A DNA stretch of 62,122 nt, the filler included, from Welwitschia mirabilis (Eukaryota), in the NCBI GenBank assembly GCA_051453625.1. It is 6 parts of one record of this genome, joined end to end, with 100 filler letters (N's around TTAATTAATTAA, not from the genome) between each part and the next. Parts side by side here need not be neighbours in the genome. Positions count along the whole stretch, not along the records: positions 15,421 to 27,430 come from JBOZIK010000001.1; 5 more parts are not named here. One strand, 5' to 3'. Both the position numbers and the translations under genes were made by a program. The notes below the pieces were generated by a model. The model made no database searches. It was not told where the DNA came from and saw only the letters and a program-made list of their open reading frames with translations. Below are positions 15,321 to 53,849 of this stretch, piece by piece. Within the stretch, counting starts at the first letter, position 1, and every line of letters starts with the position of its first letter.

Positions 15321-15420
15321 NNNNNNNNNNNNNNNNNNNNNNNNNNNNNNNNNNNNNNNNNNNNTTAATTAATTAANNNNNNNNNNNNNNNNNNNNNNNN
15401 NNNNNNNNNNNNNNNNNNNN
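15321..15420. other. Artificial assembly spacer: 44 N + TTAATTAATTAA + 44 N
   Basis: The identical 100-bp construct recurs at 27431-27530, 42924-43023, 48918-49017 and 59676-59775. The 12-mer gives stops in all six frames. Confidence 0.95.
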
Positions 15421-15779
15421 TAATTCAAGATCAACCAGTGAAATCATTATAATAAATTATTTAGGAAAATAAACAAAAGCTATAATGATTAGTTCAAATA
15501 GAAGAAGCTCAAACTCATTCTACTCTTTGACTAAACATTCAATCATAATCGTATGCCTCTAAAGTAGAGAAAGAATACCATTACCTCTCTTCGTTAATCA
15601 AAAACTCTGAGCCTTATAAATAATATTTAAAAATAAGAATCTACTTCAAACCAAGTAGACATTTAAAAAAAACAATAAAGATCATAAAGTCATATAATTT
15701 CAATCTAATGAAATTTCATCTACTTCTTAAAAGACCATCATCACTAAACTACCTTACATTTTGGTAAACATAAGACCTA

Positions 15780-16138
15780 CTAAAGTAGCTATGGCCTTTA
15801 TTAATCATGGGATTGAATTAAACATTATTAGATAATCATGTTTAGATAAGATTAATTTATAAAATCTACTAGATTCAAAGACGAGTATAACAATTAAAGA
15901 TTTCAATGATCGTGAAGATAAATCTAAGGGAACAAACACCTTACTAGTTGAGGTGGCTCAAAAAGTTAGAGATACAGAATTCCATGTGATTAACAATGTG
16001 GTCGTATTCAATTTACTTCTAGATCATCCTTGGATCATGAATACAGGGGCAATTATATCATTACCTTACCAAAAGCTCAAATTTATTGGATTAAAGATCT
16101 TAGTGCCACTAAACAAAAATCATACAGTGGCAAATGTC
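15780..16138 (+). pseudogene. Ogre/Tat-type aspartic protease remnant
   Basis: AFINHGIELNI is a decayed active-site region. FNLLLDHPWIMNTGAIISLPYQKLKF matches the Ogre/Tat pattern YNLLLGRPWIH..GA..STLHQKLKF. Confidence 0.75.
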
Positions 16139-16239
16139 NNNNNNNNNNNNNNNNNNNNNNNNNNNNNNNNNNNNNNNNNNNNNNNNNNNNNNNNNNNNNN
16201 NNNNNNNNNNNNNNNNNNNNNNNNNNNNNNNNNNNNNNC

Positions 16240-19200
16240 ATTTATTTTCAATGTGAAATTTCATTAATCTAGTTCAAGTGTCTATAATGCAATGGGAGGT
16301 TGCACAGAAAGCTCTACCTAGAAGTAGGGTTATCCATTTTGATGCTCAACCTCTAAAACAACTACATCTATGAGGTAGAAGGCTTCCTTGATCTAAATGA
16401 TCAAGTCCTTTATCATACCTAAGGGTTTTTTGATAGATGAATCAACTAATTCTAGCACAATTTCTGTAGGTTCTATTCTCTCTTCCAATCCTAAACGTTT
16501 ACANNNNNNNNNNACACTAGCTCCTATATCTATAAAGGCTTTCTTAATTTTTCAGTTCCCCTCTAATGTGATACTAACAGTTGTTGCCCCCAGATATTTA
16601 AAGTTTAGACACTTTTTAGAAATTAAATTGCTAATAGATTGAGCTAGAAAGACTTTACTAGGGATAGCTCATTTTTTTTTCTTCTTATTAGGTCTTTCCA
16701 TAGCTTAGAGTATTTGATATTTTCTTGCAAAATTTTCTAGAAAGGTAAATTAATTCTTATGTTCTATATTAAGGCTTTCAAGTGATCATCAAAGACAGGG
16801 TTTTTCTTAAGCCTATTAAGCCATGGGATAGCAGGTTTCTTTTTTATAAGGACTTTCTCTTTTTATTGCTAAGTGAAGAAGGGAAGGAATGATTTTCTAA
16901 GATTTCTATGTCTNNNNNNNNNNTTCCTCAGCATTCTTGTCGTTTTGGGAAGTTGAAGCCTCATGAGTAGGGGGAGTTATGTCATTTTCACTCTTTGTTA
17001 TTACCTTACAATCTTTTCTTACTTCGTTAGGATTTGGTAAGGGCTGAGTGATAAGGGTACCTTGTGGTTTTTAGTTGGCAAGCATGGTTTGTTGTAATAT
17101 GTTTACAAGATTTTCTATGTTTGTGTTTATATTTTCTTTGGTTTTTCTCAACTCCTCAATAGAATTCCTAAGAGGATCACTATAGTTTTGGGAGTTGCAA
17201 GGGCCTGCCATGTTATTTGATAGTTGGATTGAAAGTTTTAATGTTCAAATCTATTTCGGTAAGGTTGGGAGTTAGGATGATGTGTTTGAAAATTATTAGG
17301 TTGGTCATTTACCCTATTTTGAATGTTGTAATTTGGGACTTATCTTTGGTTATATTTTTGATTATAGCTAGAGGGTCCTTAGTTCAAAGCATGCACTTCT
17401 TCATAAATTTTCTCTTTGCATGTAGGGAATAAAAAACACTCTTTTGTAATGTGATAATTATCCTCGCATAAATCACAAGTTGAAACAACAATTTAACTTT
17501 TCTAAGTTGCCACTTTAGCATCAAGAATTATCTGGGTGTATTTCTCTAAAGTAGAAGTGAAGTCCTTAATGATGCTAGTTGGTTCATGTTCTATTTTGGT
17601 TGCAGTTTTCTCATGTTTGACTTCTTTGATATTTTTGATGATTTGGCCTACCGTTCTGTTCTCTCTAGATGAGGGTTTTGTCCAAGTTTGACTTACTTCA
17701 ACTAAATCTTCTAATATCTTTCAAGCATCTTCCAGAGTTTGGTTTAAGAGGTTTCCTCCACAAGAGAAATCTACAAGTTGCTTAGTATGACTATTTAACC
17801 CACTATAAAAATACTCTATTAATTCTAACTCAAAAAAACATCTACTGGGTTTGAGTGTAAAGCCACAAAGAATCTCTCGTAAGCAGAAGCATAGTCTTCA
17901 TTAGGAAGTTGTTGGAAGTTTTTAACTTCTTTCTTACATTTTCGAATGGTGGTTTTATTCATAAATCTTTTGATAAAGGCTTCTTGAACGTGGCTCCAAG
18001 ATTTTAGGCTCTTATAAGGGATTGTTATAAGCCAAAGTTTAGCCTTATCTTGTAATGTGATGGGAAAAATGACCATATAGGTTTTATTAGTTATGCACTT
18101 TTTACCGTTTTCAGAAGTAAGAATGAGTTGTTCAATTTCAGCGATGTGTTATAGGTAGTTTTCTTCAGGTTCTCCTCAAAAGGTAGGATAAGCATTTAGG
18201 TTTTTAAGTTCCACATCTTCACCTGGAGATAAGTTAAAAGGGTTTTGAATTTCAAGTCTTTTATTCACTATGAGATCTCTCAGAGTTGCACGAGGAGTAG
18301 GACTAATAGTTCTAATGACAGGGGTTGAATTCGGTGAGATAGGTTGTTTTTGGTGAGAGGTCAACATGGTATTAGATTTTTCAAAATTAAAATCAAACTC
18401 TTTTATAGAATTAAAATTAGAAATTTTAGGAAATTCTAAAGTTTGCATACCTCGGCTATTTTGATTTTTAATTTCAAAATTTAGCAAACCTTCTCAGATA
18501 TTTTCTACAATAAATTGCCTCTCTNNNNNNNNNNNNNNNNNNNNNNNNNNNNNNNNNNNNNNNNNNNNNNNNNNNNNNNNNNNNNNNNNNNNNNNNNNNN
18601 NNNNNNNNNNNNNNNNNNNNNNNNACTTTTTACCGTTTCCAGAAATAAGAATGAATTTTTCAATTTTAGCGATATGTTGTAGGGGGTCTTCATCAGGTTC
18701 TTCTTGAAAGATAGGATAAGCATTTAAGTTTTTAAGTTCTACATCATCGCCAGGAGGTAAGTCGAAAGGGTTTTGAATTTACGGTCTTTTATTTGCTATG
18801 AGATCTCTCAGAGTTGCACGAGGAGTAGGAGTAATAGTTCCAATTGCAAGGGTTGGATTTAGTGAGANNNNNNNNNNNNNNNNNNNNNNNNNNNNNNNNN
18901 NNNNNNNNNNNNNNNNNNNNNNNNNNNNNNNNNNNNNNNNNNNNNNNNNNNNNNNNNNNNNNNNNNNCTACATCATCGCCAGGAGGTAAGTCGAAAGGGT
19001 TTTCAATTTACGGTCTTTTATTTACTATGAGATCTCTCAGAGTTGCACGAGGAGTAGGAGTAATAGTTCCAATTGCAAGGGTTGGATTTAGTGAGATAAG
19101 TTTTTTTTGATGAGAGGTTGACATGGTATCAGATTTTTTAAAATTAAAATAAGACTATTCTACAGAATTAAAATCAGAAATTTCAGGAAATTTTAAAGTN

Positions 19201-19960
19201 NNNNNNNNNNNNNNNNNNNNNNNNNNNNNNNNNNNNNNNNNNNNNNNNNNNNNNNNNNNNNNNNNNNNNNNNNNNNNNNNNNNNNNNNNNNNNNNNNNNN
19301 NNNNNNNNNNNNNNNNNNNNNNNNNNNNNNNNNNNNNNNNNNNNNNNNNNNNNNNNNNNNNNNNNNNNNNNNNNNNNNNNNNNNNNNNNNNNNNNNNNNN
19401 NNNNNNNNNNNNNNNNNNNNNNNNNNNNNNNNNNNNNNNNNNNNNNNNNNNNNNNNNNNNNNNNNNNNNNNNNNNNNNNNNNNNNNNNNNNNNNNNNNNN
19501 NNNNNNNNNNNNNNNNNNNNNNNNNNNNNNNNNNNNNNNNNNNNNNNNNNNNNNNNNNNATGACAACTCTCGATTTCTAAGCAGCCTTCCCCAGCAACGG
19601 CGCCAATTTGTTGCGGTGCGAATTTATGTAATGTTTCACGCATTGATTTAAATCCTGTTAATTACAAATAAGATGCACAAATACAGCACACTAGTATAGT
19701 CAGAGGGTTTTGAATGTCGTAATTCCATCGAAGGCCAATAGTATGGATAATAAAGAGTTGATTTCAATAAAGAAATATGTAACCTTAATCTGCTAAATTA
19801 AACTTCAATGTATGGAACTCAAATAATGATGTAAAACTAATCTATGGAAAAAAACAGCGATGCACTTAATCTAATTAAGCTCAACCTTAATAAAGGCTGC
19901 CCTCATAATCTGGTAGATAGATCTCAATTCGACTGTAAGTTATCTATATGTGAACTCTGT
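16240..19960 (-). mobile_element. Athila-like element, 5' part (partial LTR, PBS, gag, protease), lying between the Ogre-like protease and RT
   Basis: The LTR end ...CCGCAACA is at 19609, and the PBS TGGCGCCGTTGCTGGGGA is at 19605-19588. Gag reads FPITLQDKAKLWL..SWSHVQEAFIKRF (17825-18076). The protease motif KAFIDIGASV is at about 16540. It is homologous to 49018-50250 and to the LTR near 53500-53834. Confidence 0.85.
19588..19605 (-). promoter_or_regulatory. Primer-binding site, tRNA-Asp type characteristic of Athila
   Basis: The minus strand reads TGGCGCCGTTGCTGGGGA, 3 bp from the LTR end. Confidence 0.85.
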
Positions 19961-20199
19961 TATTGCTCAACAGAAGTTATCATCCTGACTATCATGTGGA
20001 CAATGAAGTGGATGATATACTTTTCTTAATATTTAGTTAGTGTAATTGCTTTGTTGTCTACAAGAATCGTTATCTAAAATGATACTTGTCTGTATCTATA
20101 TGAAATGCTTGTGAACTATCTGATAATTTTCATCTTGTGCTCCTTGATTCTCGATTGTCATAGGAATTAAGCATTTATCTATTAGTTTATTTACAAAAC

Positions 20200-23115
20200 A
20201 ACTCAGAATACCTTATCAAATACACATAAGTTGGCATCGCAACATATGGGTTCAAAGCGAGGAATAAAAATCAATTTAGAAAAGATTAAAGCAATCGCTG
20301 GCATGCCATCATTACATAATTTGAAACAATTATGTAGTCTCCAAGGTAGACTATAAGCTATACATCAATTTATTTCAAATTTGATGGATCGATGTGAATC
20401 TTTTATGCATCTACTCAAGAAAGGTAACTAATTCAAATGGGATGAAAATTATTAACAGGCTTTTGATAAGATCTAGGAATATTTGACATCTACTTCTGTT
20501 TTAAGTTCACTTAAGCCTATCAACCCTTTTAACTTGTCTATACATCGTCATCAATTAGTGCAATGATCTTTTAATGGGATGAATTACATCGAGATAACTC
20601 AATTAACTACATCAGTAGAATCTTACACCAAAATGAGAAAAATTACACAGAACCAAAAAAGCATGTTTGAGTTTAGTCTTCACTTCATAGAAGTTTCCTA
20701 TTATATGGTGATAAATAAAATAATCATANNNNNNNNNNNNNNNNNNNNNNNNNNNNNNNNNNNNNNNNNNNNNNNNNNNNNNNNNNNNNNNNNNNNNNNN
20801 NNNNNNNNNNNNNNNNNNNNNNNNNNNNGAATTACATCGAGATAACTCAATTAACTACATCAGTAGAATCTTACATCAAAATGAGAAAAATTACACAGAA
20901 CCAAAAAAGCATGTTTGGGTTTAGTCTTCACTTCATAGAAGTTTCCCATTATATGGTGATAAATAAAATAATCATAATCAATAATCAAAATCTACTCAAA
21001 CATTTACTTGAATATTCTACTAGAAGTACTTATCTGTCAAAATGAACATCAATTCTTACTGAGTTCAACTTGGAATTTCAATCTGAANNNNNNNNNNNNN
21101 NNNNNNNNNNNNNNNNNNNNNNNNNNNNNNNNNNNNNNNNNNNNNNNNNNNNNNNNNNNNNNNNNNNNNNNNNNNNNNNNNNNNNNNAATTCTCACTGAG
21201 TTCAACTTGGAATTTCAATCTGAAAAGTCTATCAAAGGTAAATGCATAGTTGAACAAATAGCAAATCTACTAATAAAAATAGAGGGTGAAACCTTAGATG
21301 AATCTAAATAATTCCTAAATGAATAAATCCATTTCATTAAAATAAAAAAAGGCTGTGATGCATTAATGTTTTTTGTTGATGTATTAAATAGAAATGGTGG
21401 TTTTGCAGAAGTATTTTTCTTTTTGATCAAAGAAATGAGTTTACCATTTTCCTTTAAGTCGAACTTCCCTTGCACAAATAACATCACCAAATATGAAGCC
21501 TTGTCAAGAGGAATAACCATTGCCATTCAAGTTGATTTCAAGAGCTTATGCATTTTTGGTGATTCATAGTTAGTGGTTAATTAAGTGTTAGATAAATATG
21601 AAGCAAAGTCAAAAATTTTATGCCTTTACCTTGAAAAGGTAAAAGGTTTCTTTCTACATTTGATCATTGTGAGATCCTAGCCATTCTAAGAAGTGAAAAT
21701 CAATTTGCCGATTACCATACAAACATCACTTAAACTTGCTTCAAAGATCTATTATTCAAGGAATATGTCACATGTATAGATATAAATCGAAATTTTCTAG
21801 ATAAACAACTAATTATAGCTTATTTGGAATTACAACAAGATGTAGTAAACCAGTTAGTGAAGGACCCAAAAATAATCAATGGATAGTATGACACATTAGT
21901 AAATTACCTTACTAATCAAAAGATATCAGAAGATATAACTTTTATACAAAGTCAAAACTTTCATGATCAAGCTGCATGCTTCACCATGATCCAAAGCCAA
22001 CTATATAAACAATCAAATGATGATGTCTTACTCAGATGCCTAAAGTCAAGTGAAGCTACCTATGTCTTGAAAGAAACTCATGCTAGTTTATGTGGTTTAC
22101 ACCAAGGGAAAAATCATTATTAATTCATATTTTAAGATCTGGTTACTTGTGGAAAACCATGAGCCATGATCGTTTTAGAATGATAAAAGCTTATCATACT
22201 TGCCAAATCTTTTCACTCAGAATACATTAATTGCCTACTAAACTCTTTTCATCTGATTCCATTTAGATATTTAGGAAATGGGGTATGGATGTAATTGATC
22301 TAATTACACCAACTTCATCTAAACAACATGATTATGTTCTCACTATGAATAAATACTTTTCAAAGTAATACCTTTACATTAAATAACCATAAAAAAAGTC
22401 CAAAAATTCATCCTATATCACATTATTTCTAGATTCAGTAATCCTTATATCATTATTAGAAATAATGATCCATAATTCAAATATGTTGAGTTAAATTTTT
22501 TTTCAAAGTAAATTTGGAATAAAACATTCCTTTTTCACATCACGTTATCCTCAAGTAAGCGCTCAGGCTGAAGCCATAAATAAAGTAATTATAAACTACC
22601 TCAAAAAATTACTATAAAGAAATCCAAAGTCATGGCATGAAAAATTATCCCTTACCTTATGGGATTACCAAACCATGGTAAAAAGTTCCATAGGAATAAT
22701 TCCATTCTAGTTAGTTTATGTTACTGAAGTAATTTTACTAATCCAAATTCAGATTCCCACACTGAGAAATTTGGTCAAAGATCTTGAATTATCTAATGTT
22801 AAAAGAGAAACATAAATCACTCAGTTAAAAACTCTAGATGAACAAAGAATGAAAGCACTACAACATACACAACTTTATTAAAAACGAGTGAGTGACACAT
22901 ACAATAAACATGTGAACCCCTCATCTTATAACATAGGTAAACCTATTTTAAAAGTAAACTTAACTAAGAAAACCTCAAAATTTTTACCAAATTGGTTAGG
23001 ATCATTTATGGTATCATAAAAATTTAACAAAAAAACATATGAGCTTAAGGATTTAAATGACATTAAGGATAATGAACCATTTAATTCATTTTATCTTTGA
23101 CCATACTATCAGTAA
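20200..23115 (+). pseudogene. Ogre/Tat pol remnant: RT C-terminus, RNase H, additional RNase H (aRH) and integrase
   Basis: RT reads SKRGIKINLEKIKAIAGMP..LCSLQGRL..FKWDE (20235-20470). The aRH reads CTNNITKYEALSRG..LCIFGDS (21470-21569). Integrase motifs are ETHASLCGLHQG, KWGMDVID, QAEAINK and FLPNWLGSF. The region is heavily mutated. Confidence 0.87.
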
Positions 23116-24055
23116 AATCCATAATTCACATCCTTTTTGCTACATTTTCATTACACATTCTATGCATTTATTGTTACTACTTCATTTATGATAAAATGTG
23201 ATATACATTCATATAATTACTAGACATTTAGAATATCATGTTTTCATATGTTATGTAGGTTTCACATTTTCCTTATTTGCTTGAGTTTTAGAGATCATGG
23301 ATGATCATAAGCATTAGATTCTAGTAGGTTTATATCTTGGTAAATGTCCTGCACTAGTTGCACCTAGTAGACATCATCTCATTCCTTATCGAGCTTCTCT
23401 GATTGACATTCCATTTCATGAAACTCCCCTTGTAGAAGACGACAATGATGACAATAGTGTATACCATACCGATCCTTGCTATGACATCACCCATTTGTTC
23501 TCTTCTATAGTTCACACCTTTGCACAAGTAATTGTATGCTACCTTATTATGCAAAACATCAATTATTCTACTTGATAATAGTGTGTTTCACCTACTCATT
23601 CTCTTTCCTTCAATAATTAGACATGTGATTTTTAATTCCACTTTTCACTCAATCTCTCTTGAATTTTTTATTAATATTTTTTTGAATTAATTCATTTTAT
23701 TCCATTGGATGACATTTGGGTACATCTTTATAATAAGTTAACTCTTAAGTGGTGAAAGTCTTACTTTACAGAAAAGTGCATTTTAAATGACTTCATTAAT
23801 TTTTTAATTTAGATGCTAAGAAAGACTTAGTATTAATGAACAATAGCTGAGATTACATTAATGATTATCATAATAATTTTGGCATGATAGAAGTGATTGA
23901 GTAGGAAGATCCTCTTGATCAAGGAGTAAGTCTTTCCTTCATCTTTATCTAAATAACTCCTTAGTAGGGTTTCTTGGTTAAGGTCATTTCTTTATTTAAT
24001 CATCAATTTCATTTGATCCTATTCAAGTTCTCATGAAAGTAATTTTTCTACTTTG

Positions 24056-24124
24056 GGACATTTATAGTGGTAAGATTGGATTTCAGCCAATCCTAAGACA
24101 TTCATATGTCTATGACATTCAATT
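24056..24124 (+). ncRNA. Candidate structured RNA module 1 (twin hairpin) in a retrotransposon 3' UTR, copy A
   Basis: Stems are TAAGATTGG/CCAATCCTA and AGACA/TGTCT. A homologue lies at 51566-51631. Confidence 0.5.
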
Positions 24125-24696
24125 CCTAATGTTCTCTTATCTTAGTATCAATTTGTATCAAATCTAATGTTTGTTCTCAGTAGTGAATCTTACAATTTAT
24201 CATCTCAATGATCAACCAATGTTNNNNNNNNNNNNNNNNNNNNNNNNNNNNNNNNNNNNNNNNNNNNNNNNNNNNNNNNNNNNNNNNNNNNNNNNNNNNN
24301 NNNNNNNNNNNNNNNNNNNNNNNNNNNNNNNNNNNNNNNNNNNNNNNNNNNNNNNNNNNNNNNNNNNNNNNNNNNNNNNNNNNNNNNNNNNNNNNNNNNN
24401 NNNNNNNNNNNNNNNNNNNNNNNNNNNNNNNNNNNNNNNNNNNNNNNNNNNNNNNNNNNNNNNNNNNNNNNNNNNNNNNNNNNNNNNNNNNNNNNNNNNN
24501 NNNNNNNNNNNNNNNNNNNNNNNNNNNNNNNNNNNNNNNNNNNNNNNNNNNNNNNNNNNNNNNNNNNNNNNNNNNNNNNNTTACAATTTATCATCTCAAT
24601 GATCAACCAATGTTAAAAAAAAAAAAAGAAAAGAAAAAAGAGAGAATTCAAGTCAATTGGTAAAATATTAATACCATATACCAAAAGAAAAAAAAA

Positions 24697-24864
24697 TCAT
24701 GATGTCCTATCACAAGCGCATCGGGGTAAATATTCCTAAGAGGTGCCTTTGGTAGTAAGATATAATAGTTGTGGGAACTCCATTGGAGTATAAATTGGTT
24801 ATGATATATCTTTTAATTATAGATCCTTATGCTCTTGGTAGTGGTTGCACTTCCCTCATCATGA
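24697..24864 (+). ncRNA. Candidate structured RNA module 2 (multi-stem) in a retrotransposon 3' UTR, copy A
   Basis: It is closed by TCATGATG/CATCATGA and has internal complementary segments. A homologue lies at 51836-51992. Confidence 0.55.
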
Positions 24865-25611
24865 CAGATGGTTTCTTTCAAAAATTCCATTAGCTTGACT
24901 TCCTATGAATCTAAAGCTATAGCTTCAAGAGTATTCAAAACATGTTAATTATGATAGTAATTTGTTAAGGTATCACTTACTATGATAGTGGATGATTGAA
25001 TAGATTTATAGTCCTAACATCATATTGATACTTCGCAGAATGACTATAGACATTCTCATAATCATTGTCCTAATTACATGATACTTTGTGTTGTTTAGTG
25101 TTTAAGCATCATTAATGACATCAGATAGATTTATGATTCATAACAATAGAAATTTCTAGGTTGGCATTTAGAGACATTAAAATCGATCTTCTCTATATCC
25201 CTGTTTATCCATTCTCACCTATTCTTTTCTTAGCTTTCATAATTAATTACTTCAAAGTTGTGTTTCACATTTACTCTTAATTTATTTAAGGCTAATTCTA
25301 CTTTTTAGTTAATTTATCATTTTCTAATACTCAAGCCCTTTTATTTTTCATTTTATCATTTCCTATTCACTACAAAGTTATTTTAATTTACCTTCATTTC
25401 AGTTTAATTAAATGCACCCTTTTGCTTTCACTCAGTATCCTATTCATAATCTTTCACAATAATCTATGATGCATTTACCATTTCTATTGTACACACATCT
25501 GAGACTTATTCACACTGTATTTATGCCATTTATTTGAGTTACTCTTTATTATCTCAATCTTCACAATCATAGTAAGGTTAACTAATGCATGTGAAAACCC
25601 CCAAGGTGTAT

Positions 25612-27694
25612 TGTCACAACCCGTACTTGGGTTGAACTTAAGAAGCACATAAAAAAGGGTAAATTTTTTTTCCTAAATTAAACTTAAACAAAGTTAACTT
25701 ACAAGACACGATTAAATATTGCAGCAGATCAATTAGATTTAAACTGAGATAATCACATTTCAATTACCCACAGGATACACCTCAGGAGAACTATATGAGG
25801 ATAGCTCACCTGATTATNNNNNNNNNNNNNNNNNNNNNNNNNNNNNNNNNNNNNNNNNNNNNNNNNNNNNNNNNNNNNNNNNNNNNNNNNNNNNNNNNNN
25901 NNNNNNNNNNNNNNNNNAGTAATTAAAAGGGCCTCTGCCAAAGCAAATAAAGCTTCTATCTCCTGAAGCAAAGCCTCTACCAAAATAGAAGCCTCTGATG
26001 AAAAGCCTCTAAAGAAAAGCCCCATAAACTAATGCCTCCACTACCAAAGACAGGAAGAAAAGCATCTGGTTTTCAAAGATGAGGCTTAATTTAATGTATC
26101 TGCCATTTGGATTAATAAAGGCCAATAACTAGGAGATAGATTAAANNNNNNNNNNNNNNNNNNNNNNNNNNNNNNNNNNNNNNNNNNNNNNNNNNNNNNN
26201 NNNNNNNNNNNNNNNNNNNNNNNNNNNNNNNNNNNNNNNNNNNNNCCTCTGCCAAAATAGAAGCCTCTGATGAAAAGCCTCTGAAGAAAAGCCCCATAAA
26301 CTAATGCCTCCACTACCAAAGATGGGAAGAAAAGCATCTTGTTTTCAAAGATGAGGCTTAATTTAATGCATCTGCCATTTGGCCTAATAAAGGTCAATAA
26401 CTGGGAGATATATCAAGGCATTTGTTCCTTGAAAAGATGCCTTGACCTTTCTTGACCGTCCATTACTAACAGAGCAATGAATGGCTGACAGCTTGGTGAT
26501 AGAGTGGGTGAGGGCTGTGGCGAGGCTGGCAGAAGGCCATGGCGAAGATTGTATGGTGAAGATTTGCGGGAGAACCGCTGGTAAGGCGAATAGCTAGATG
26601 CATATCGTGTTGTGAATGCTGAAGGGTGCAGCCAGTTCCGTGGACGGTAGGTGGTGCTATCTGTAAGAGCGACGGAAGGCGTGGCTGTTTGCAGAAGCAT
26701 GGGAGGTGGCCTGCATATTTGTGTGTAATTTCAAAACACACTGGCACCAGGCAAAATGCAGAAGAGGAGCCAAAGCAGAGGAGAAAGACTACAGGAAAAC
26801 TGATTTAAGAACAAAGGTTTAAGAACCAACCCTGAAGCAGACAGGAACACGCGTAGACGCTGACGAAAAGAGGCTTTCTACAAGCATGACTGTGAAAGGC
26901 TAGACGCAGAAGGAGCAGAGCACTCAGTTCATGCTTTCTTCACACTTAATCGCATTGCAACTCATAGAAATCATGCCTCTAGCCATCTTCTAAGCACCAA
27001 AGCCTCTCCTGTGTGCTCTACCTGATAGGCCTCCCTTGCCTGCGTCCTCCCCGCTACCCCAAAACTTTGCATCCCCCTTTTCTCTTATGCCCATATTCAC
27101 TTTGATGCGGTTCTCACCTTGACCACCCTGCAATGCACAAAGTCCATACGGTCCTTTTTTTTTTCCCCCTGATCACATGCCCCTCCTTTTAACACTATCT
27201 TCCTGACCACTTATCTGAGCAAAATTTAATTTTAACTAGTCTTGAAATGATGATTTATTAACTCTTTCTGCTCCCTTCTCTCTACCATTAAAATCCTACT
27301 TACTTCTCCTTACATAATAATAATAATATATATATTATTTCTTTATTAATATTTATATATATAAATTGGTATATTCATTATTTGTTTTTTATATATATAT
27401 ATGTAAACTTACTATATATGCACTTATTTTNNNNNNNNNNNNNNNNNNNNNNNNNNNNNNNNNNNNNNNNNNNNTTAATTAATTAANNNNNNNNNNNNNN
27501 NNNNNNNNNNNNNNNNNNNNNNNNNNNNNNCATTATTATTTATAAATTCACTTCACTACTATTTTTCTTTTACATCCATAATTTTTTTGTCCCTTTTTAT
27601 TTAGTAATGTTTCTTGAAATATATAGACAAAATGAAATAAAAGTAATTTTAACATTAGAGATCTAATCATTGTAGTAAAATATGGAGTGTTACA
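25612..27694 (-). mobile_element. Solo LTR with Tekay-style termini, inserted in the 3' UTR of the Ogre-like element
   Basis: Termini are TGTCACAACCC...GGAGTGTTACA. The 5-bp TSD TGTAT is at 25607-25611 and 27695-27699. There is no PBS or retrotransposon coding domain inside. Orientation is inferred from the TGTAACA start. Confidence 0.82.
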
Positions 27695-27768: not shown

Positions 27769-29388
27769 TGTATATAGATATTTTTTTAATAGATGTCTCC
27801 TAACATTTTTTTTTTGACTTGAAAGAGATGGAAATATTCATTCATTAAATGAAATCCTTAGCTACATAAAACAATCTCTTGTATAGTTGCTAGAGTAGAA
27901 CTTGAGTAGACAAAGTTGTAGATCTAAGTAGAACTTTAGTAACAGTGCACATGAGAGCTATACTTGGTACTATTCTAGCTAACATGTCCTCCTTTAATGC
28001 TTCCCTAGCTAAGACCACAACCACATTAGTTGAGTTTGAATTCAAACCCATTAAAGTACATGAAAGTCTTAAAGCATGCTTTGATAAAAGAGTAAATAGG
28101 TTAACATCAATGAAACCTATTACATAAAAAGCTAATATTTGAAAAGCATGCATCTATATCCCCATATAACATGGGAGTTTTATTTATTTTTGAATATTCA
28201 TTCTAGGGTATAACCAGGCATAACATAACAAGGCATAACTTAGCAACCACTTTATGTATCCCAAGATATGGAGAATGTGAAAAATTCACAAGCAGTTACT
28301 GCTTGTAACAGTGAATACTTCACAACATCAATCTTGCCTTGTTAAAGAGCAAGGATTGCTATAGTCATCTCTATTATAGTCTTACCTATGGCATTTTAAT
28401 TGTCCTCCCAATGTACCTTTGGGAAGAACCTCATTCAGATCTGAAGCTAAAAATGTGGAACACCTAACTGTGCTATCCCGTAAACAAAAATACTTAAAAG
28501 AGATGATGGATCCATTTGCTTTGAGATAAATTATTTGGACAAAAATCTTTGTGCATCTTCTGTCTTAGTTGCAAGAAATATCCTGCATCATTTTGATTAA
28601 AGAATGCAGACTCTTCAGACCTTAACAAAAGAAGGGATGGTCCATTGTGGATTAAATTTGCTACAATTTACGCTACGACTTGAAATTGATGGTAAATTAT
28701 AAAGCCATCATTGACCATACCATCAACCTGACATCTATAATGACATCATTGATGATTTAGATATGAAAGTGGAATGATGTAATAATCAAAATTGGATTCA
28801 AAGATTCCTGACTTCTCAAGATGGCCATGAAAAGACAACAACTATGGGAGGAGCTTTTTCACTTCTTTCTGAGCTTTTTACTTTCAGACTTTGCTTTAGT
28901 CATTGGCATCGCATAAACTTTTTCTTTGCATAGCTTTTTCTTCTAGTCTTGCATCTTCTTAAATAGTGTAATCCTTTCTTTATTGTTTTTTTTAGGTAAG
29001 CTTTGTAATTTCATATTTCTAATGGCTATGACATTTCTGTTTAAAATCAAGAGATGAAAGAAGCCATTCAACGATCAGATTCAGAAAGTAGAGCATTGGT
29101 GGTAAAACTTGACTGTGCATAACATAATGTCAAAAATTGTTACATCCCTTATTCATCATAAAAGATAGAGCTAGTAGCATCCTAACTGTCTTTGCTATTC
29201 CACAGAACCCTCAGAAATAGGAATGGAAAAAAAAAAAATCTTGTGTTTACTTCATGTAACACTCACATGAAGAGAAACTCTCATTGGTGATAGGCAAAGT
29301 AGTTTTAATAATTAAACATAGAAGAATACTATTGGAATTTTCTTTGGGTAATGCCAATAATTTAATGTTGGTATGAAAATAAAAAAGA

Positions 29389-29546
29389 TTTATTAAGTTA
29401 GTAGAGTTAGTGGGTCAGTTACTGAAAAGAAAGAAAATAATTATTGAGTTAGTAAAGTTAGTAGGTCAGTTACTAATAAGAAGGAAAATGGTTATTAAGT
29501 TAGCAGAGTTAGTGGGTCTATTACAAAAAGAAGAAGAATTGTTATT
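29389..29546 (+). repeat. About three copies of a roughly 52-bp tandem repeat in the copia LTR (also at about 34222-34380)
   Basis: TTATTAAGTTAGTAGAGTTAGTGGGTCAGTTACTGAAAAGAA-like units recur upstream of the TATATAAG box. Confidence 0.85.
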
Positions 29547-29756
29547 TCATTTGTATGCCTATATAAGGCTCTCTAGTTGCATCAAATAAAATATGACTTC
29601 CTTTGTGTGACTTCCTTCATAGAACTCCCTTTGGAGTATCAAATTTCTATTTAGTTTTTGATCTCTTATTTTTGACATTTTGTATCAGAGCTATGGTTCT
29701 CTTTAGTAGCAATCTTTATTTGCAATAGCAAATGGAAGCTATTTTTGCAGTAACAA

Positions 29757-32700
29757 ATGGCTTCAGAGGACTCTTTTGTACAACTGGCCATTCCGCATTT
29801 CAATGGCCACTACGACCATTGGAGCATGTTNNNNNNNNNNNNNNNNNNNNNNNNNNNNNNNNNNNNNNNNNNNNNNNNNNNNNNNNNNNNNNNNNNNNNN
29901 NNNNNNNNNNNNNNNNNNNNNNNNNNNNNNTAACAAATGGCTTCAGAGGAATCTTTTGTACAACTGGCCATTCCGCATTTCAATGGCCACTACGACCATT
30001 GGAGCATGTTGATGAAGAATTTTCTACGATCGAAGGAATATTGGTCCATTATTGAATATGGAATTGGAGAACTAAAAGACAGCTCAGTTCTATTCGATAC
30101 CCAGAAAACAGCCCTTGAAGCCAGAAAGCTAATGGATCTAAAGGCCAAAAATTACTTATTTCAAGCCATTGNNNNNNNNNNNNNNNNNNNNNNNNNNNNN
30201 NNNNNNNNNNNNNNNNNNNNNNNNNNNNNNNNNNNNNNNNNNNNNNNNNNNNNNNNNNNNNNNNNNNNNNNNNNNNNNNNNNNNNNNNNNNNNNNNNNNN
30301 NNNNNNNNNNNNNNNNNNNNNNNNNNNNNNNNNNNNNNNNNNNNNNNNNNNNNNNNNNNNNNNNNNNNNNNNNNNNNNNNNNNNNNNNNNNNNNNNNNNN
30401 NNNNNNNNNNNNNNNNNNNNNNNNNNNNNNNNNNNNNNNNNNNNNNNNNNNNNNNNNNNNNNNNNNNNNNNNNNNNNNNNNNNNNNNNNNNNNNNNNNNN
30501 NNNNNNNNNNNNNNNNNNNNNNNNNNNNNNNNCAAGATTTAAAGGCTTATACTAATACACATTCCACAAATTCTAGAGGAAGGAGTAGAGGTAGAGGTAG
30601 AGGCAGAGGCAGAGGTTGAGGTCGAGGATGATAGCAGAGACGACACCAGAAATTCCAGAGACAATCAAGACAAAGGCAAAGAATAAGGTTTTGACAAATC
30701 TAAGGTAGAGTGCTTTAGATGTTATAAATTTAGCCATCATAAATCTAAGTGTTGGATTAAACTACCTAATGACAAGGAAGAAAGTTCAAATTTCATCAAA
30801 AAGAATGAAACAGAGACATTATTAATGGCTATACATGATGGGAAGGAGCTAGAATCAAGTATCTGGTATATTGACATAGGCTGTAGCAACCACATGAGTG
30901 GTAGTAAGTCTTCTTTTTCTTTTTGGATGAAGATTTCACTTCTATTGTGAGTTTTGATGATAGCTCTACTGTGAAAGTGATGGAAAAATGTGACATTAAA
31001 ATAAATACCAAGAATGACTTTATGAAAAAAAAGTTCAATGTGCTTTATGTTCCTAATTTAAAAAGTAATCTGCTAAGTGCTAGTCAGTTATAGGAAAAGT
31101 GTTATGTTATCACTATTAAGAAGGATACTTGTGAAATTTATGATCCTATTAGAGGTGCAAGTGTAGTTGTTTTGATGAATTCCAATAGATTATTTTCTTT
31201 AAAGATTAAAAGCATTTACTCTTTCTTGGTGGCTAAAGTGAAAGACCTCTCATGGTTGTGGCACCATTGCTATGTTTACTTGAGTTTCAATGGATTAAAG
31301 ACCCTTCATTAAAAGAACATGATAAATGGACTTCCTTAGGTTACTGCTCCTCCACAAGTCTATGAAGAGTGTATTGTTGGAAAAAAACCTTGCTCTCAAT
31401 TTCCAAAGGAAAGATTATGATGAGCAAAAAATGTTTTGGAGCTGGTGCATTCAATATTTATGGTCCAATACACACATCTTCTAATGGACGTAAATGATAC
31501 TTCATTATATTTATCGATGATTTTTCTAGGAAAACATGGGTTTACTTTCTACAGGAAAAATTAGAAGCTTTATCTACATTTAAAAGCTTTAAAGTTCATG
31601 CAGAAAATGAGATACGAAGGAATATTAAGACCTTCCAAACAGATCGTGGTGGTGAGTATTGCTCCAATGAATTTGAATCTTTTTCTGCAGAACATAACAT
31701 CCAAAAAGAGCTTACAATAGCATATACACCACAACAAAATGGTGTATCAGAGAGGAAAAAAATAGGACTATTCTAAACATGGTGAGAAGCTTGTTGGTGA
31801 AAGGAAAGGTTCCAAAAACATTCTAGCTAGAAGTGGTAAATTAGATCATTTATGTTTTGAATAGAAGTCCTACTTTTTCTATTTAAAATATGACACCAGA
31901 AGAAGCATGGAGCGACAAAAAACTAGTAGTGGATCACTTCAAAATTTTTGGTTGCATCACTTATAAAAAATCTCAATGACAAGGCTAAAAAATGTATCTT
32001 CCTTGGGGTAAGTAATGTATCCAAAGCATATAAGTTATTTAACCCACTAACAGAGAAGATTGTGACTAGCAGGAATGTCACTTTTGAGAGGAAAGCACTT
32101 GGGATTGGAACAAGTAGTAGCCTATACTTTTTATTTTGATAATTTAGATGAGTAGGAGAAAAATTCAGTGACTTGTGTGCCTCAAAATGCAGCTCCAACA
32201 ACCACTAAAACCTCTGCAAAGAGTGCTGGAGCCAATAAAGAAGAAGCTAATTCTCATTGACAAGTTAGAAAAAGACTAGCTTGGATGGGAGATTATGAGA
32301 TAACTAGAATTGATGATCCAATTAGTCATTTTACTTTATTTTCAGATTGTGATCCTATTACTTTTGAGAGTTCTGTTAAAGAAGAGAAATGGAGAAATGC
32401 GATGGCTAACAAAATTGTAGTGATTAAGAGAAATAATAATTTGGGAGCTTGCTGATATTCTAATGGGATATAAAATCATTGGAGTGAAATGGATCTTCAA
32501 AACAAAGCTGAAAGGGAATGGCAATGTCAACAAATACAAAGCACATCTCATTGCTAAGGAGTACAAACAAGAACATGACATCGACTACACATAAGTGTTT
32601 TCTCCAGTTACGAATCATAACATAATCAGGGTGGTGGTTGCATTAGCTACATAAAACTCTTAATCTATTTTCCACCTCGATGTCCAATCAGCATTCTTGC

Positions 32701-34040
32701 ATGGTTACTTGGAGGAATAGGTATTTATCGAATAACCCCCTAGTTATATCAAAACTGGAAGTGAGAATAAAGTATACAAACTAAAGAAGGCTCTTTATGA
32801 TCTAAAATAAGCCCCATGAGCTTGGTATAGTTACACTGAGGCTTTTTTTTTTTAAAGCTAGATTTCTGAAATATCCTTATGAGCNNNNNNNNNNNNNNNN
32901 NNNNNNNNNNNNNNNNNNNNNNNNNNNNNNNNNNNNNNNNNNNNNNNNNNNNNNNNNNNNNNNNNNNNNNNNNNNNNNNNNNNNTGGTATAGTTACACTG
33001 AGGCTTTTTTTTTTAAAGCTAGATTTCTGAAATATCCTTATGAGCATACTTTATTTGTCAAAATTGAAGATGATGGCAAAATGCTTGTTGTTTGCTTGTA
33101 TGTCTATGACATGCTATTTATTGAAAATTGTGATGCCATATTTCAAGAATTAAAGAAGTCCATGATGAATGAGTTTGAAATGTTTGATCTTGGTATGATA
33201 CATTACTTTCTTGGTATAGAAGTAATGTAATCAAGTGATGGGATTTTTATTTTTCAAAAAAAGTATGCTAGAGAAATTTCAAACAGGTTTCAGATGAAGG
33301 ATTATAATCCTACAAACACTCCAAATGAGTTAGGTTTGAAATTGTGCAAAGACCTTAAAGGAAAAAAGATTGAAAGCACTCTTTACAAACAAATTGTGGG
33401 CAGTTTGATGTATCTAACTATAATGAGACTAGATATAATGTACTCGATAAGACTCATTAGTAGATACATGGAGAATCCTATAAAAATGCATTTGTTAGCA
33501 GTCAAGAGAATCCTTCATTACTTGTAAGGAACCAAAGATTTTGGTATATTTTACAAGAAGGGTGATAAGCTTAATTTGCTTGGATTTACTGATAATGGTT
33601 ATGCAAGAGATCAAGATTATAGGAGAATTACCTCTAGTTATACTTCTATGTTTAGAACAAGTGTTATTTCATGGTTATCTAAGAAGTAACCAATCATCAC
33701 GCTGTTGAGTACTGAAGCTAAATTTATTGCTGCCACAGTTTGTTCTTATCAACTATTTAGCTAAGGAGAATCCTTTAAGAGTTACAAGTTAAACAACTAG
33801 GAGCTACAACAAGTTTTTGTGATAACAGTTCAACAATTAAGCTTTCCAAAAATCCAGTGCTACATGGCAGAAGTAAGCATATCGATGTGAAGTTCTATTT
33901 CTTGTGGGAACTTAGCAATGATGGAATAATTGATCTAAAGTTTTGCAAAAGTGAAGATCAGATTGCTGACATAATAACTAAACCATTAAAGTTGCCTATG
34001 TTTTAGAAGCTAAGGAAGTTGCTTGGAGTCTATGCACTTA
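29757..34040 (+). pseudogene. Copia gag-pol pseudogene
   Basis: Gag reads IPHFNGHYDHWSMLMKNFLRSKEYW. The protease motif WYIDIGCSNHMSG is at about 30865. Integrase reads FIDDFSRKTW, TDRGGEY and YTPQQNGVSERK. RT reads IGVKWIFKTK, LYVYDML and YKQIVGSLMYL. RNase H reads CDNSSTIKLSKNPVLHGRSKHIDVKF. Many stops are present. Confidence 0.92.
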
Positions 34041-48917: not shown

Positions 48918-49975
48918 NNNNNNNNNNNNNNNNNNNNNNNNNNNNNNNNNNNNNNNNNNNNTTAATTAATTAANNNNNNNNNNNNNNNNNNNNNNNNNNN
49001 NNNNNNNNNNNNNNNNNTCATCAAGGAATTAAAACATGTAAAGCAACAAAAAGAGATAGAATACAACCCTATAAATTGTATAAGGGAATTTACAATAACC
49101 TTGTAGAAGTATGTAAAAATGATCTTAGATGCTAAAACCACAACTGAAAGGAATGTTGTGCCAACTTGTAATTTATGTGAGGACTACTATCATGTCACCA
49201 AAAATTGTCCTCTTTTACCAACTTATAAAGAGAAAATTTGAGAAGAAGTTTGTGCTTTTAATCAACCATTTTGAAACTTCTAAAATAAAAATTAGGCACA
49301 ACCTAGATTGAACACAAATTTCCAAAATAATCCTCAATCTTTTAGAAACCAACTTGAAAACACATATTACCAACCAAGTTCATCCAATTTTCAACATTCA
49401 AATGATCAAATTGCAAACTCTTTAGATGAAATGAAAAGAACACAAGAGGCAACAAATGTCAAAATAGATAATTTGGTGAATGTCCTTCAATAAACATTGT
49501 TAGCAAACCAACAACCTTAAGGAGCTTTCCTACACAACCTTTATTTAACCCAAATGAACTAAGAAGAAATTATAAGATTGTGACAAGAAGTGGATAAGAA
49601 ACAAACCCTTCTACATGAAAACCTTCCACCTCCTATAATAATGAAAAAGAAGAGGAAGAGACATTGAGATTTTAGATGATTACAACTTCCCTTCTCTTGG
49701 CAAGAAGAAAAATAAAAGTCCTGCCCCTTGGCTTAATAGGCTTAACAATAATTTAACTTTTAATAATCATTTAAATGCCTTAATAAAAAAACATAAGAAT
49801 AAACTTACCATTTTGGAAATTTTTACAAGAAAATCCGAGGTATTCAAAACTATGGAAAGACTTTATAAGAAGAAAACAAAAATGAGTCATTCCTATTAAG
49901 GTCTTTCTTGTCGAATCCCTCATGAATTTAGTGTTATAAAAATTACCCAAGTTTAAAGATCTAGGAGTAGTAATA

Positions 49976-50629
49976 GTGAATGTTAGTATAGAGGAAAATA
50001 AAAATATTAGAAAAGCTTTGATTGACATTGGAGCAAGTGTTAACATTATGTTGCTTTATATTTGTAAGAGGCTTGGTTTAGAGGATAGAATAGAGCCTAC
50101 CTCAATTATCCTAGAATTAGTAGATACATCAGTTAGGAAACTGTTAGGCATTATCAAAAATTTGCCAATACAAATTGAAGAGGCTTGCTACCTCATTAAT
50201 GTGATTATCATAGAAGTTAAGCATAACATAGGACATCCTTTACTTCTAGGTAGATCCTTTTATGCAACAGCCCATTGCATCATTAATACAAGAGCAGAAA
50301 CCATGAAATGTCATTTTGGAAATAAAACTTTTATGATTAGAGTCTTTGATGCAGCTAAGAAAGATTTGGATGATAATGATATAAATATTGAAGATAATGT
50401 TAAACCTACTTTATTTTTACAACATCACTCACTTAAAGAAAGAGAGTTGAAATCAAATGAGCATGTGCTTTGTGATGATCAACTTAAGAATAAAGAAGAA
50501 AAGAAACCTTTTAAGTATAAGAAGGTCCAACTTTTCAAGAAAAATCATGATGAAGATTGTCAAATTCATAAGCTAAAAATTGAAAATCATAATTTGAATT
50601 TGAAAAAAAAATGTTTCCAATGGCCATGA
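49976..50629 (+). pseudogene. Retrotransposon aspartic protease ORF remnant (Athila type)
   Basis: KALIDIGASVNIM, ILELVDTSVRKLLGII and PLLLGRSFYATAHCII are present. The upstream gag frame is broken by stops. Confidence 0.88.
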
Positions 50630-51565
50630 AGGTAATTTTCTTTATAATATTCTAAATAAAACCTTTTCTTTCCATGAAAATCTTTTACTCAAGCTATCAA
50701 TTTTCTTCCCTTTAACTTTAAAAATTTGTGCTTTGATGTGGCATCATAGAGTGCTATCCATTACTCCTCTCTTCATCCAATTGATTTTACTTTGAAATAA
50801 TTACACATCTCTTATGTTTTATCAATTAGTGAATTTTTGGTTTGGACCTTACTTCTCTAAAAAACTTGAGACCATAATAGATTCTTAATTTTCCTTTCTT
50901 TCTTTTCAATAAAAGTGNNNNNNNNNNNNNNNNNNNNNNNNNNNNNNNNNNNNNNNNNNNNNNNNNNNNNNNNNNNNNNNNNNNNNNNNNNNNNNNNNNN
51001 NNNNNNNNNNNNNNNNNTTCTTTTTAATAAAAGTGTGTTTTTAGCTTTATATTTGAATAAAAGTTTGCTTGCTTTATTATTTTCTTTTTAGTTTATAGTT
51101 TTCATGTTTTCTTTTCATTTTCTATTCTCTATTTCTATTTGCATTTTTTCTATTTTCTATTTCTACAAAAATAAATGGTTGTCTCCCCTGTCGTCCCCAT
51201 GAAAAGGTGGGTAATAGTTTATTTTTTTGATAGTTTCCTAGTTTTTCTATTAATTTTCTATGTTTTCTTTCTTTTTCTTATGTATGTCATCCTCTCTATT
51301 GTCTGGATGATGAATAGGACGATAGCCAATAAAATGTTAATTTTTATTTGCCATTATTTCAAAAAATACATTTTTATGACTGAGTTGAGATTTCCAACTT
51401 GACTACTTAACAATTATAGGAAGTAAATGGAAAAAATTGGAATTTCATGAGTGAACCATCTAAATTTTCTCTTAGCTTTTTCCTTTGAAAGATTATTATG
51501 ACATTACTTAATCAATTTTCAAACTTGACTTATGTATTTATTTCCATAACTAGTCTTTTGACTTA

Positions 51566-51631
51566 GGCATTTTAGTGGTAAGATCGGATTCACCCAATCT
51601 TAGGACATTCACAAGTCCATAAACTTCAATT
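51566..51631 (+). ncRNA. Candidate structured RNA module 1, copy B
   Basis: Stems are TAAGATCGG/CCAATCTTA and GGAC/GTCC. It is homologous to 24056-24124. Confidence 0.5.
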
Positions 51632-51835
51632 GAGGAAAGATGCTTTATTTTTATGTTTTTCGCAATGGTAAAAAGGTCTTAACTTGTTTAAAAGTGTTCT
51701 TTTCTATCTTAATATTTTGACTTTCACCTTTGTCTTTTGAAGTGTTTAGTCATGTGGAATGGTTTTCTTTAAAAAAAAAAAAAAGAGTGAATTAAGACCA
51801 TGATGTTTTATATTTTTATCTTAAAAAATTGATTA

Positions 51836-51992
51836 TCATGATGTCCCACTGCAAGTACACCAGGGCAAATATTTCTAAGAGAAGCCTTTAGCAGTGTAAT
51901 ATGGTAGCTGTGGAAACTCCATTGGGAGGTTAGTTGGTCATGTTTCATAGGTCCTTACTTCTCTAATAGTGGTTGCACTCTCCTCATCATGG
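51836..51992 (+). ncRNA. Candidate structured RNA module 2, copy B
   Basis: The closing stem is TCATGATG/CATCATGG. It is colinear with 24697-24864. Confidence 0.55.
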
Positions 51993-53849
51993 ATAATAAA
52001 ATTGTATTTAAAACTTTAAGGCTATTGGATTAGTGGTGTTCCTAGTATCATCAGAGGCATTGCTTGTTTTCTAGACTCCTAGTCTTTCCACATGATCATT
52101 TCATTTTTTGAGATTTTGGTTTTTGTTTTGAGATGATGGTAAGAAAGTTCATTTTTGAGCAATTCTTTGGTATGATCATTCATTGTTTAAAAGTATTTTA
52201 TCTAACATCATCATAATCACTACCTTATTAAATGAAATTTTTGTATATTAAATCATGTAATTTACATCAAGTGATGTTATGATTACTTTCATTGGAATTT
52301 GCTAAGTTAAAATGTTAGATTGGTGAGCTATCTTTTATTTATATTATCTTATATCCAATCTTCTTATTTTCTTTTGTGTTTTAGTTAGTTATTTCAAAGT
52401 CATTACCATATTTTCTTAGCATACTCTTCTTATTGTTCACTCTTCTTGTTAGAACATTTCCTATCTTTATATTTTTCAAATCTGACATTACTCAGCTTTG
52501 TACTTTGTTTTAGAAATTGTTCTAATTCTTACCATCTTTTACCTATCTTCTCACTCTCGTTTACCTTCTTTGTTGTATTTTCTAATACATGACGTATTGC
52601 TTTTTTTTTGGAAGGGTAGAGACCCATTTACATGGCTCATTTTTAAAAATTTTTAAAGCTTTCATGAAATAAATATTTCAAAATTACATACACATTATGC
52701 ATTACTTGTTATCTATTTATGTGATGTGTTTTTATGAGCATGTTTTATAATTTTTTAATTCTTCTTTGAAAAATAAATTTGGCTCGCAATTGTAGTTTTT
52801 TCTACCTAGTTTTTGTTAAAGACTGACAAAGGCTAAGTGGGGGACTATATTGTGCTACCAATTTATGGTTATTTGATGGGTTTTATGAGTTGTTTTGCAG
52901 GACTTTTATATAGGCTTAGATGCAATTCTGAGGATTTTGGAGATACAAGAGGAAATCTCAAAAAAGTGCAATTATTATCTAAATTTAATGCATTAAAGGC
53001 ACTTTTTGATGAACATAGCACGATAGGTAGGATGACGACTATTCAAATGGACTACTGAGTCATCACTTTCAAGATATTTTATGATGTACTATCGTCCCTT
53101 ATGTCATCTGGATGACAGCCCGAATGACACTGACATGTAACTATCACAGATAGATTCCCTCAGTCGTTTTATTTATTTTAGAGTGATTCATAAGTGTAAT
53201 TTACTACATCCACTATCTATTTTTTTCTATTGTATTTTCCTATAAATAAGTCCCCCTTTGACTCTCCTTCTTATCTTCAATGCACCAGAGATTCTTGGGA
53301 TAGGAGAACAAAGGGTGAGAGATCTATCTTAGGTATTGTAGAAAGACAAGCACTTGGTGGAGGGTTGAGTATCTTCCATTGAGACCTGGCTATTTTGTAA
53401 CCTGGATATTGTTACTCTTTAATATAAATCTTGGTTTTATTTCATGTTTGCATGTTAGGTTTTTTTTATGTCCCTTATAGCCTAATATTACCCTTGATCT
53501 GATGATAATTTCTTGGGTGATATAGATTATCAAAGGCAACCTTTATTAAGGCTGAAAACAAGTAGGGTTNNNNNNNNNNNNNNNNNNNNNNNNNNNNNNN
53601 NNNNNNNNNNNNNNNNNNNNNNNNNNNNNNNNNNNNNNNNNNNNNNNNNNNNNNNNNNNNNNNNNNNNNNNNNNNNNNNNNNNNNNNNNNNNNNNNNNNN
53701 NNNNNNNNNNNNNNNNNNNNNTTTCGAGTCACTTCCATTATACTAGTGTGATGTATTATGCATGATATCTATTTTAATTATTAACTAAAGAATCTATTTG
53801 AACATAAAAGCATGCACAAATACATACTACAACAAAGTCAATGTGTCAA

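Follow-up and report, generated by a model that had tools for sequence, protein, structure and literature searches.

A segment of about 160 bp that recurs in two retrotransposon remnants of the Welwitschia mirabilis genome is read here, with a probability of roughly 70%, as the opening ~155 bp of a long terminal repeat (LTR), that is, as the 5' end of U3 right after the polypurine tract, in a very abundant Ty3/gypsy family. The family most likely belongs to the Ogre-Tat-Athila superclade and is most likely Athila-like with tRNA-Asp priming. The two copies of the segment (the module) would then be old, methylation-decayed members of one LTR family; they are called A and B below, and both lie in the stretch of 62,122 nucleotides of assembly GCA_051453625.1 that we analysed (the window). 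We favor this reading because both copies have a TG 3 bases from their start behind a purine tract, because the read depth of the module relative to internal sequence is ~2:1, and because in most reads the start of the module is abutted by purines. Read in this way, the module is an ordinary feature, which an interpretation made from the letters of the window before our analysis (the sequence-only reading) saw correctly and over-interpreted. The significance as read is that of routine repeat annotation, as it sets the boundary between polypurine tract and LTR in a family that occurs thousands of times per Gb in a plant genome of very large size.

It should be noted that context in the window has to be treated with caution, as it crosses artificial scaffold joins. 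The letters at 27475-27486 are TTAATTAATTAA, a six-frame stop spacer, and the other linkers share the same N geometry (Table 1). Thus, the window consists of separate scaffolds strung together, and neighborhood across the linkers is artificial. Copy A is located on the scaffold at 15421-27430 and copy B on the scaffold at 49018-59675. At most of the 100-N gaps, the adjoining ends are 97-100% identical and represent unmerged contig overlaps; such N gaps with duplicated ends are probably spurious and their stated sizes meaningless. Since 24190-24223 is 100% identical to 24581-24614, the 357-N gap before copy A is probably spurious as well.

Table 1. Features of the window discussed in the text, with their positions in the whole stretch.
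Feature	Position	Strand	Remark
Module, copy A	24697..24864	+	Putative LTR begins at TG 24700-24701
Module, copy B	51836..51992	+	TG at 51839-51840
Purine-rich region of copy A, putative polypurine tract	24615..24696	+	Read directly
Purine run of copy B (51771-51787) and spacer before the module	51771..51835	+	Read directly
Upstream homologous block of copy A, end of internal 3' region	23992..24124	+	Aligns with 51504-51631
Upstream homologous block of copy B	51504..51631	+	Aligns with 23992-24124
Downstream homologous block of copy A, in putative LTR	25050..25399	+	Aligns with 52205-52540
Putative 3' LTR holding copy B	51839..53834	+	TG start, TATAAATA at 53241-53248, CA end at 53833-53834
Gag-protease remnant 5' of copy B (family X)	49123..50626	+	Asp_protease E 4.6e-4, gag-asp_proteas E 3.3e-3
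Minus-strand family-X element, 3' part of 5' LTR and primer site	19588..20246	-	Comparison piece
Decayed Tat-type pol fragment 5' of copy A	20438..22900	+	Pfam and PDB matches, X at stop codons
RT_RNaseH_2	20438-20539	+	Pfam E 0.014, below curated cut-off
RT_RNaseH	20551-20664	+	Pfam E 0.1, below curated cut-off
Archaeal-type RNase H (RVT_3)	21477-21644	+	E 5e-4, 20.3 bits vs cut-off 21.6
Integrase core	~22288-22660	+	11/11 PDB matches are integrases or Gag-Pol, best E 0.015
Linkers	15321-15420, 27431-27530, 42924-43023, 48918-49017, 59676-59775		44 N + 12 letters + 44 N
Duplicated gap ends (examples)	18739-18867/18968-19096, 20581-20728/20829-20976, 29751-29830/29931-30010, 39634-39745/39941-40052		

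The two copies align in one orientation with 71-77% identity. BLASTN reports 71.0% over 169 columns (E 3.8e-18), and the local alignment score of 64 compares with 9.2 +/- 1.3 for 200 dinucleotide shuffles, which bears out the earlier claim that the two segments align end to end in the same sense. A BLASTN search of the whole window returned A and B, which sit on different scaffolds, and no third copy. When aligned with MAFFT, the copies share 115 identical columns and are separated by 36 transitions, 6 transversions, and 11 gaps; 36/42 substitutions are transitions, and the differences are indeed mostly C/T or G/A, as had been stated. Read directly, TCATGATG opens both copies, while CATCATGA closes copy A and CATCATGG closes copy B, both of the CATCATG(A/G) type, just as the sequence-only reading had it. 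The resulting terminal inverted repeat of 7-8 bp bounds the module exactly where the homology between A and B breaks off. An inverted repeat at these borders is unpredicted by the LTR-start reading and counts against it. The repeat could be due to chance, as (ATG)2 and (CAT)2 are simple motifs; other possible sources are a recombination joint and the capture of a small unit. No target-site duplication was found around the modules, the flanks of A and B being different and without a repeat, and a tandem-repeat search detected no arrays at or adjoining either copy. Searches for exact patterns from two conserved blocks of the module returned 0 loci in contigs of metagenomes, viruses, and prokaryote genomes. 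Coding sequence was also considered as the identity of the module and was ruled out by stops in all six frames of both copies.

According to the sequence-only reading, most of the surrounding UTR did not obviously align. This did not hold up, as three further collinear blocks are significant with permissive scoring. The upstream blocks are identical at 100/123 ungapped columns (81%), with a score of 44 vs 17.9 +/- 2.5 for shuffles (maximum 30, z 10.6) and a BLASTN match of 72.5% over 138 (E 1e-12). The purine tracts agree at 26 of 31 positions (24626-24657 in A, 51771-51801 in B), and the downstream blocks, which start ~200 bp past the module, at 222/327 (68%), with a score of 49 vs 18.5 +/- 2.7 (maximum 28, z 11.5). 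With the spurious gap removed, the upstream block and the module are separated by ~180 bp in A and by 204 bp in B. Beyond 25400 and 52540, respectively, no A/B homology was detected (z 0.1), so the two putative LTRs share nothing past ~700 bp, and the absence of likeness beyond that point counts against the LTR-start reading. Equal conservation of the flanks had been named beforehand as a finding that would speak against a discrete module. With 120/155 ungapped columns identical, the module is no better conserved than the upstream block. It is conspicuous mainly because its equally homologous neighbors are broken up by indels and it is not, and also because subfamilies diverge just past it. 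Overall, what had been seen from the letters stands in part: the alignment, the borders, and the possibility of drawing the stems discussed below are upheld, but the unalignable surroundings are not.

The anatomy of both copies is consistent with the start of an LTR. In each, the first three bases of the module are followed by a TG (24700 in A, 51839 in B), and a purine tract precedes the module; in copy A this region includes purine runs of 32 nt (24615-24646, all purines) and 14 nt (24683-24696). The purine run directly before the TG is short in copy A and interrupted in copy B, however, which counts against the LTR reading. Past the long A-run, and ~37 nt before copy B begins, there is a 9-nt partial copy of the start of the module (CCATGATGT, 51798-51806); there is nothing similar at copy A. 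Together, the TG at the start, a putative TATA box at 53241 in the same gap-free contig as copy B, and the CA at the end have the predicted anatomy of a 3' LTR of ~2 kb, which spans the assembly gap at 53570-53721. No direct repeat of the module at both ends of one element was found within the window, and this also counts against the LTR reading. In the RNA of such an element, the module would lie in the 3' untranslated U3, and in that RNA sense it was correctly placed in a 3' UTR from the letters. RNase H would spare the purine tract as the primer of the plus strand, DNA synthesis would begin at the first bases of the module, and its terminal bases would form the end recognized by integrase. 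The module may therefore have roles in priming and integration, although in LTR elements such a role is established for the first 10-20 bases only.

To view the family beyond the two assembled copies, two raw whole-genome runs (X14 and X15, 1.94 Gb from each) were mapped to 51300-52499 at 80% likeness. In run X14, module B has the highest depth of the mapped region (7,060-8,770), followed by 7,140-7,340 at 52020-52099 and 1,600-4,300 further into the repeat; the block before the purine tract (51500-51619) reaches 3,650-4,650, and 51300-51459 further upstream only 126-1,400. The depths of run X15 are similar. The depth of the module is thus ~2x that of the adjoining internal block, as expected for LTR vs internal sequence, although the ratio could also reflect unequal divergence. 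The raw genomic reads correspond to ~4,500 copies of the module per Gb. At the left border, the best-supported loose end (1,218 and 1,352 reads in the two runs) has a consensus in which 29/30 letters are purines and which abuts 51837; the polypurine tract touches the module in most copies. Loose ends were also seen at 51992 (1,695 and 1,550 reads), while ~80% of the module depth runs on into 52020-52099, a block that is missing from copy A.

The reads also bear upon the degree of conservation. In run X14, 38,704/47,540 reads are <90% like copy B, and at 5 of the 6 best-supported difference sites within the module copy B has A/T where the reads have G/C. Two copies that are each ~13% from the commonest letters of the family would be ~75% identical to each other, so no extra constraint is needed, and decay alone would explain the level of identity between A and B. 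This ~75% compares with 70% between two gag-protease relatives.

The sequence-only reading regarded the module as a discrete structured cis-acting RNA (for packaging or export, or ribozyme- or tRNA-like) under selection in the 3' UTR, which we consider very unlikely. All four of the stems that it named can be drawn (46/48 cells pair), an 8-bp terminal inverted repeat closes both copies, and the 5-bp hairpin GUGGR/AAC/UCCAY would have one more G-C pair in most copies of the genome, where ~77% of reads have C at 51922. The RNAalifold consensus of -29.2 was reached by 0/300 full column shuffles (-17.3 +/- 3.6) and is better in the sense than in the antisense orientation (-18.95). With the closing 8-bp stem held, the shuffles gave -23.0 +/- 3.4 and 15/300 reached -29.2; the two-copy consensus fold is somewhat better than interior column shuffles, which counts against an LTR-only reading. 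The single copies, on the other hand, fold much like their shuffles: copy A at -42.7 kcal/mol (z -1.33, 16/200 shuffles fold as well) and copy B at -38.1 (z +0.15, 104/200), with minimum-energy structures that differ between the two. Among the 24 pairs proposed from the letters, 19 are invariant, 3 are wobble changes, 2 are broken, and 0 are compensatory. RNAalifold places 42 pairs with 5 double changes, a number that 21-24% of column shuffles reach or exceed, and 4 of the 5 fall in a stretch alignable in several ways. A search for a known family in Rfam 15 gave no match to the module, with nothing at gathering score across the window and nothing at E up to 10 inside either copy or anywhere in 24581-25000; the three matches in 51720-52140 are at chance level (8.7-15.3 bits) and all lie in the flanks of copy B. 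ARAGORN likewise reported 0 tRNA-like genes. A conserved cis-acting RNA is therefore not borne out, given folds that match those of shuffles, 0 of 24 compensatory pairs, no Rfam match, and a flanking block conserved as well as the module. The support for a folded RNA is limited to the inverted repeat and the 5-bp hairpin, in structure tests of two sequences that are underpowered by that number.

The same sharp borders might suggest a small MITE- or SINE-like unit that was inserted at an ancestral LTR start and then co-amplified. In the two copies, as in many reads, the borders fall at the terminal inverted repeat of 7-8 bp, the copy number of the module is very high, a T-run follows both copies on the minus strand, and a length of ~160 bp with a short terminal inverted repeat and thousands of copies is indeed reminiscent of MITEs and SINEs. 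These, however, differ from the module, which has neither a target-site duplication nor a pol III head, is fixed behind a purine tract, and has collinear flanks. The flanks of A and B are unlike and unrepeated; the left flank in most copies is the purine tract rather than random sequence; and a tRNA-like head was not found, with no ARAGORN gene and no Rfam match to tRNA, 5S, or 7SL. In addition, the neighboring blocks have 40-85% of the depth of the module and lie collinear with it in A and B alike; the module thus moves together with them. We regard an origin of this kind as highly improbable.

To place the LTR-start reading within a lineage, we inspected the context of each copy, beginning with copy B. 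Its gag-protease remnant is 68-72% identical, in inverted orientation, to 16241-16844 and 17383-17526, and no RT, RNase H, or integrase was found between its protease and the module. Of 1,159 candidates in a homology search with the protease ORF, 1 matched; it is an unnamed plant protein of 665 aa and uninformative on lineage. The minus-strand family-X element (gag at 17828-18148, protease region at 16241-16844) has an LTR that ends in CA at 19610-19609, followed by the 3-nt spacer AAT and the 18-nt primer site TGGCGCCGTTGCTGGGGA (19605-19588), which we take to be of the tRNA-Asp type. The LTR of copy B matches this LTR end at 52846-52897 (E 1.7e-7), 53524-53555 (E 1e-3), and, past the gap, 53739-53836 (E 4.6e-4). 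All three are collinear, though with weak scores (E 1e-3 to 2e-7). No primer site follows the end of the copy B repeat (...CAACA, 53834), as expected for a 3' LTR. Thus, the assignment of copy B to an Athila-like element from the letters appears roughly right, as its LTR end is homologous to one followed by a tRNA-Asp-type site. The Athila clade is also set apart by a pol without archaeal RNase H, and pol is missing from the element of copy B.

Athila-clade elements of legumes have a tRNA-Asp site a few bases past the LTR, according to passages in PMC1142308 and PMC2533021. Compared with the members of this clade (Diaspora and Calypso of soybean, Mtr60 of Medicago), the likeness lies in a purine tract that abuts a TG-starting LTR, in the ~2-kb length and CA end of the copy B LTR with a tRNA-Asp-type site in a related copy (excerpts of PMC1142308, PMC2533021), and in a nearby accessory ORF of the Transposase_32/Athila ORF-1 kind (an excerpt of PMC11728184). 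The difference is that there is no complete element here, and the element of copy B is without RT, RNase H, and integrase. ORFs matching Transposase_32 (PF20167) are present at 54108-54467 (+) and 2354-2860 (-), with E 6e-13 and 1e-5, respectively; part of PMC11728184 describes Transposase_32 as related to Athila ORF-1 and as found in the 3' accessory ORF of Athila. As the ORF at 54108-54467 is just past the LTR end of copy B, it belongs to another element. Another Athila-like LTR end is found at 59600-59674, cut by the scaffold end, with 79% identity over 78 columns to 19609-19685; no tRNA-Asp-type site was found beside it.

The context of copy A is quite different in its marks. Once the spurious gap is removed, copy A lies ~1.1 kb 3' of a decayed pol, in which the domain order is RNase H, archaeal-type RNase H, and integrase, with weak matches in decayed genes; the RVT_3 region also has a PDB match to archaeal RNase HI (E 0.03). 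Six-frame Pfam scans of long X-read stretches were blank while shorter pieces gave weak matches, so the blanks are uninformative. According to a passage of PMC6317226, Ogre/Retand elements of the Tat clade are marked by an archaeal RNase H that separates RNase H from integrase, and the order of the domains near copy A appears to be of this Tat-clade type. The statement that copy A is in an Ogre/Tat element was therefore roughly right in that it adjoins a Tat-type pol, as judged by domain order and weak matches, and this position counts against an Athila-like LTR. Excerpts of PMC7004042 and PMC6317226 describe Tat-clade elements with a hypervariable 3' UTR that contains tandem repeats and is followed by the polypurine tract and the LTR. 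The likeness to such a 3' region is that copy A lies behind RNase H, archaeal RNase H, and integrase. The differences are that the distance from pol to LTR in Retand is 2.9-6.6 kb (in part of PMC11963269) vs only ~1.1 kb for copy A, and that Ogre primes on tRNA-Arg (in passages of PMC2206039 and PMC2533021), whereas most module copies are tied to a tRNA-Asp-type LTR. Elsewhere in the window, a piece at 14439-14637 shares 63% identity with the post-integrase region by copy A (23080-23276) and is followed at 14948-15320 by a 207-bp tandem duplication, which together resemble a second Tat-type 3' UTR of the kind described in an excerpt of PMC7004042. Downstream of copy A, 26440-27200 is G+C-rich within A+T-rich sequence, with no Pfam match in the ORFs tested.

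The presence of one module behind each type of element raises the question of exchange. Such an exchange would have swapped a 3'-terminal cassette, running from the last part of the internal region through the polypurine tract to a point ~700 bp into U3, between Tat-clade and Athila-clade families by template switching or LTR swapping, and the module would be its best-kept core. In its favor, copy A follows RNase H, archaeal RNase H, and integrase on the same strand, and its upstream block shares the gap-free contig of the integrase remnant (21188-24223), while copy B is behind a gag-protease without RT or integrase between, shares its contig with Athila-like LTR pieces, and has an LTR end that resembles the tRNA-Asp-type one. 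These marks separate the two clades in the relevant passages of PMC6317226, PMC2206039, PMC2533021, and PMC1142308; recombination during reverse transcription is documented within families in an excerpt of PMC6894440, and pol-deleted non-autonomous Ogre elements in one of PMC7004042. Nevertheless, this support amounts to adjacency, in two decayed copies and with weak domain matches. The scaffold of copy A already has one non-canonical junction, inside the gap-free contig 19560-20728, where a truncated minus-strand LTR of the Athila-like kind and a plus-strand Tat RNase H truncated at its 5' end meet head-to-head; another such joint at 22.9-24.0 kb would thus be nothing unusual. The assembly also contains gaps and unmerged overlaps of contigs, and short-read contigs of repeats at thousands of copies can be chimeric. 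Copy A is also without the abundant block at 52020-52099, so it is a minority variant. Since the module copies are mostly of the copy B type and tied to a tRNA-Asp-type end, it is more likely that copy A is a fragment or derived variant of the Athila-like family behind a truncated Tat element. We therefore consider the swap of a cassette unlikely, although the inheritance or exchange between lineages that had been suggested from the letters is possible, judging from adjacency in a draft assembly.

A fuller version of the exchange, which we regard as quite unlikely, would have it produce chimeras in which a pol-less Athila-like element shares the cis signals of a Tat-type partner, with the inverted repeat serving as a joint or as an RNA/ssDNA structure. 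Partnerships between autonomous and non-autonomous LTR-retrotransposons, including LTR swapping, were reportedly described by Du et al. 2010, and Dasheng/RIRE2 and BARE-2/BARE-1 are partner pairs of this sort. The likeness is that pol-less and pol-bearing elements share the surroundings of the polypurine tract and the start of the LTR. Known partners, however, are of the same lineage and have whole LTRs in common, while here the linkage is putative, the marks are those of different clades, and the homology ends ~700 bp into the LTR. If a cassette were truly common to Tat and Athila types, the finding would matter more, as cross-clade LTR recombination is poorly documented, and so is a non-autonomous element that borrows its terminal signals from another clade.

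Further elements were also identified in the window. An inverted pair of 1 kb (46010-47062 and 47868-48916) is 70% identical, and its arms carry tRNA-Met-type primer motifs at 46644 (minus) and 48283 (plus), like facing LTR ends; the motif at 48283 was also considered as part of the element of copy B and was rejected, as a scaffold linker lies between. A small Ty3/gypsy element at 4706-11176 (+) has LTRs at 4706-5023 and 10890-11176 that are 82% identical, matches to gag, RT, RNase H, integrase, and SH3_Tf2-1, and a tRNA-Met-like primer motif at 5033. Lastly, a Ty1/copia element is located at 29332-34495 (+), with an LTR pair that is 86% identical and contains a 51-bp tandem repeat in each LTR, a primer motif at 29680, and matches to RVT_2, rve, and gag_pre-integrs.
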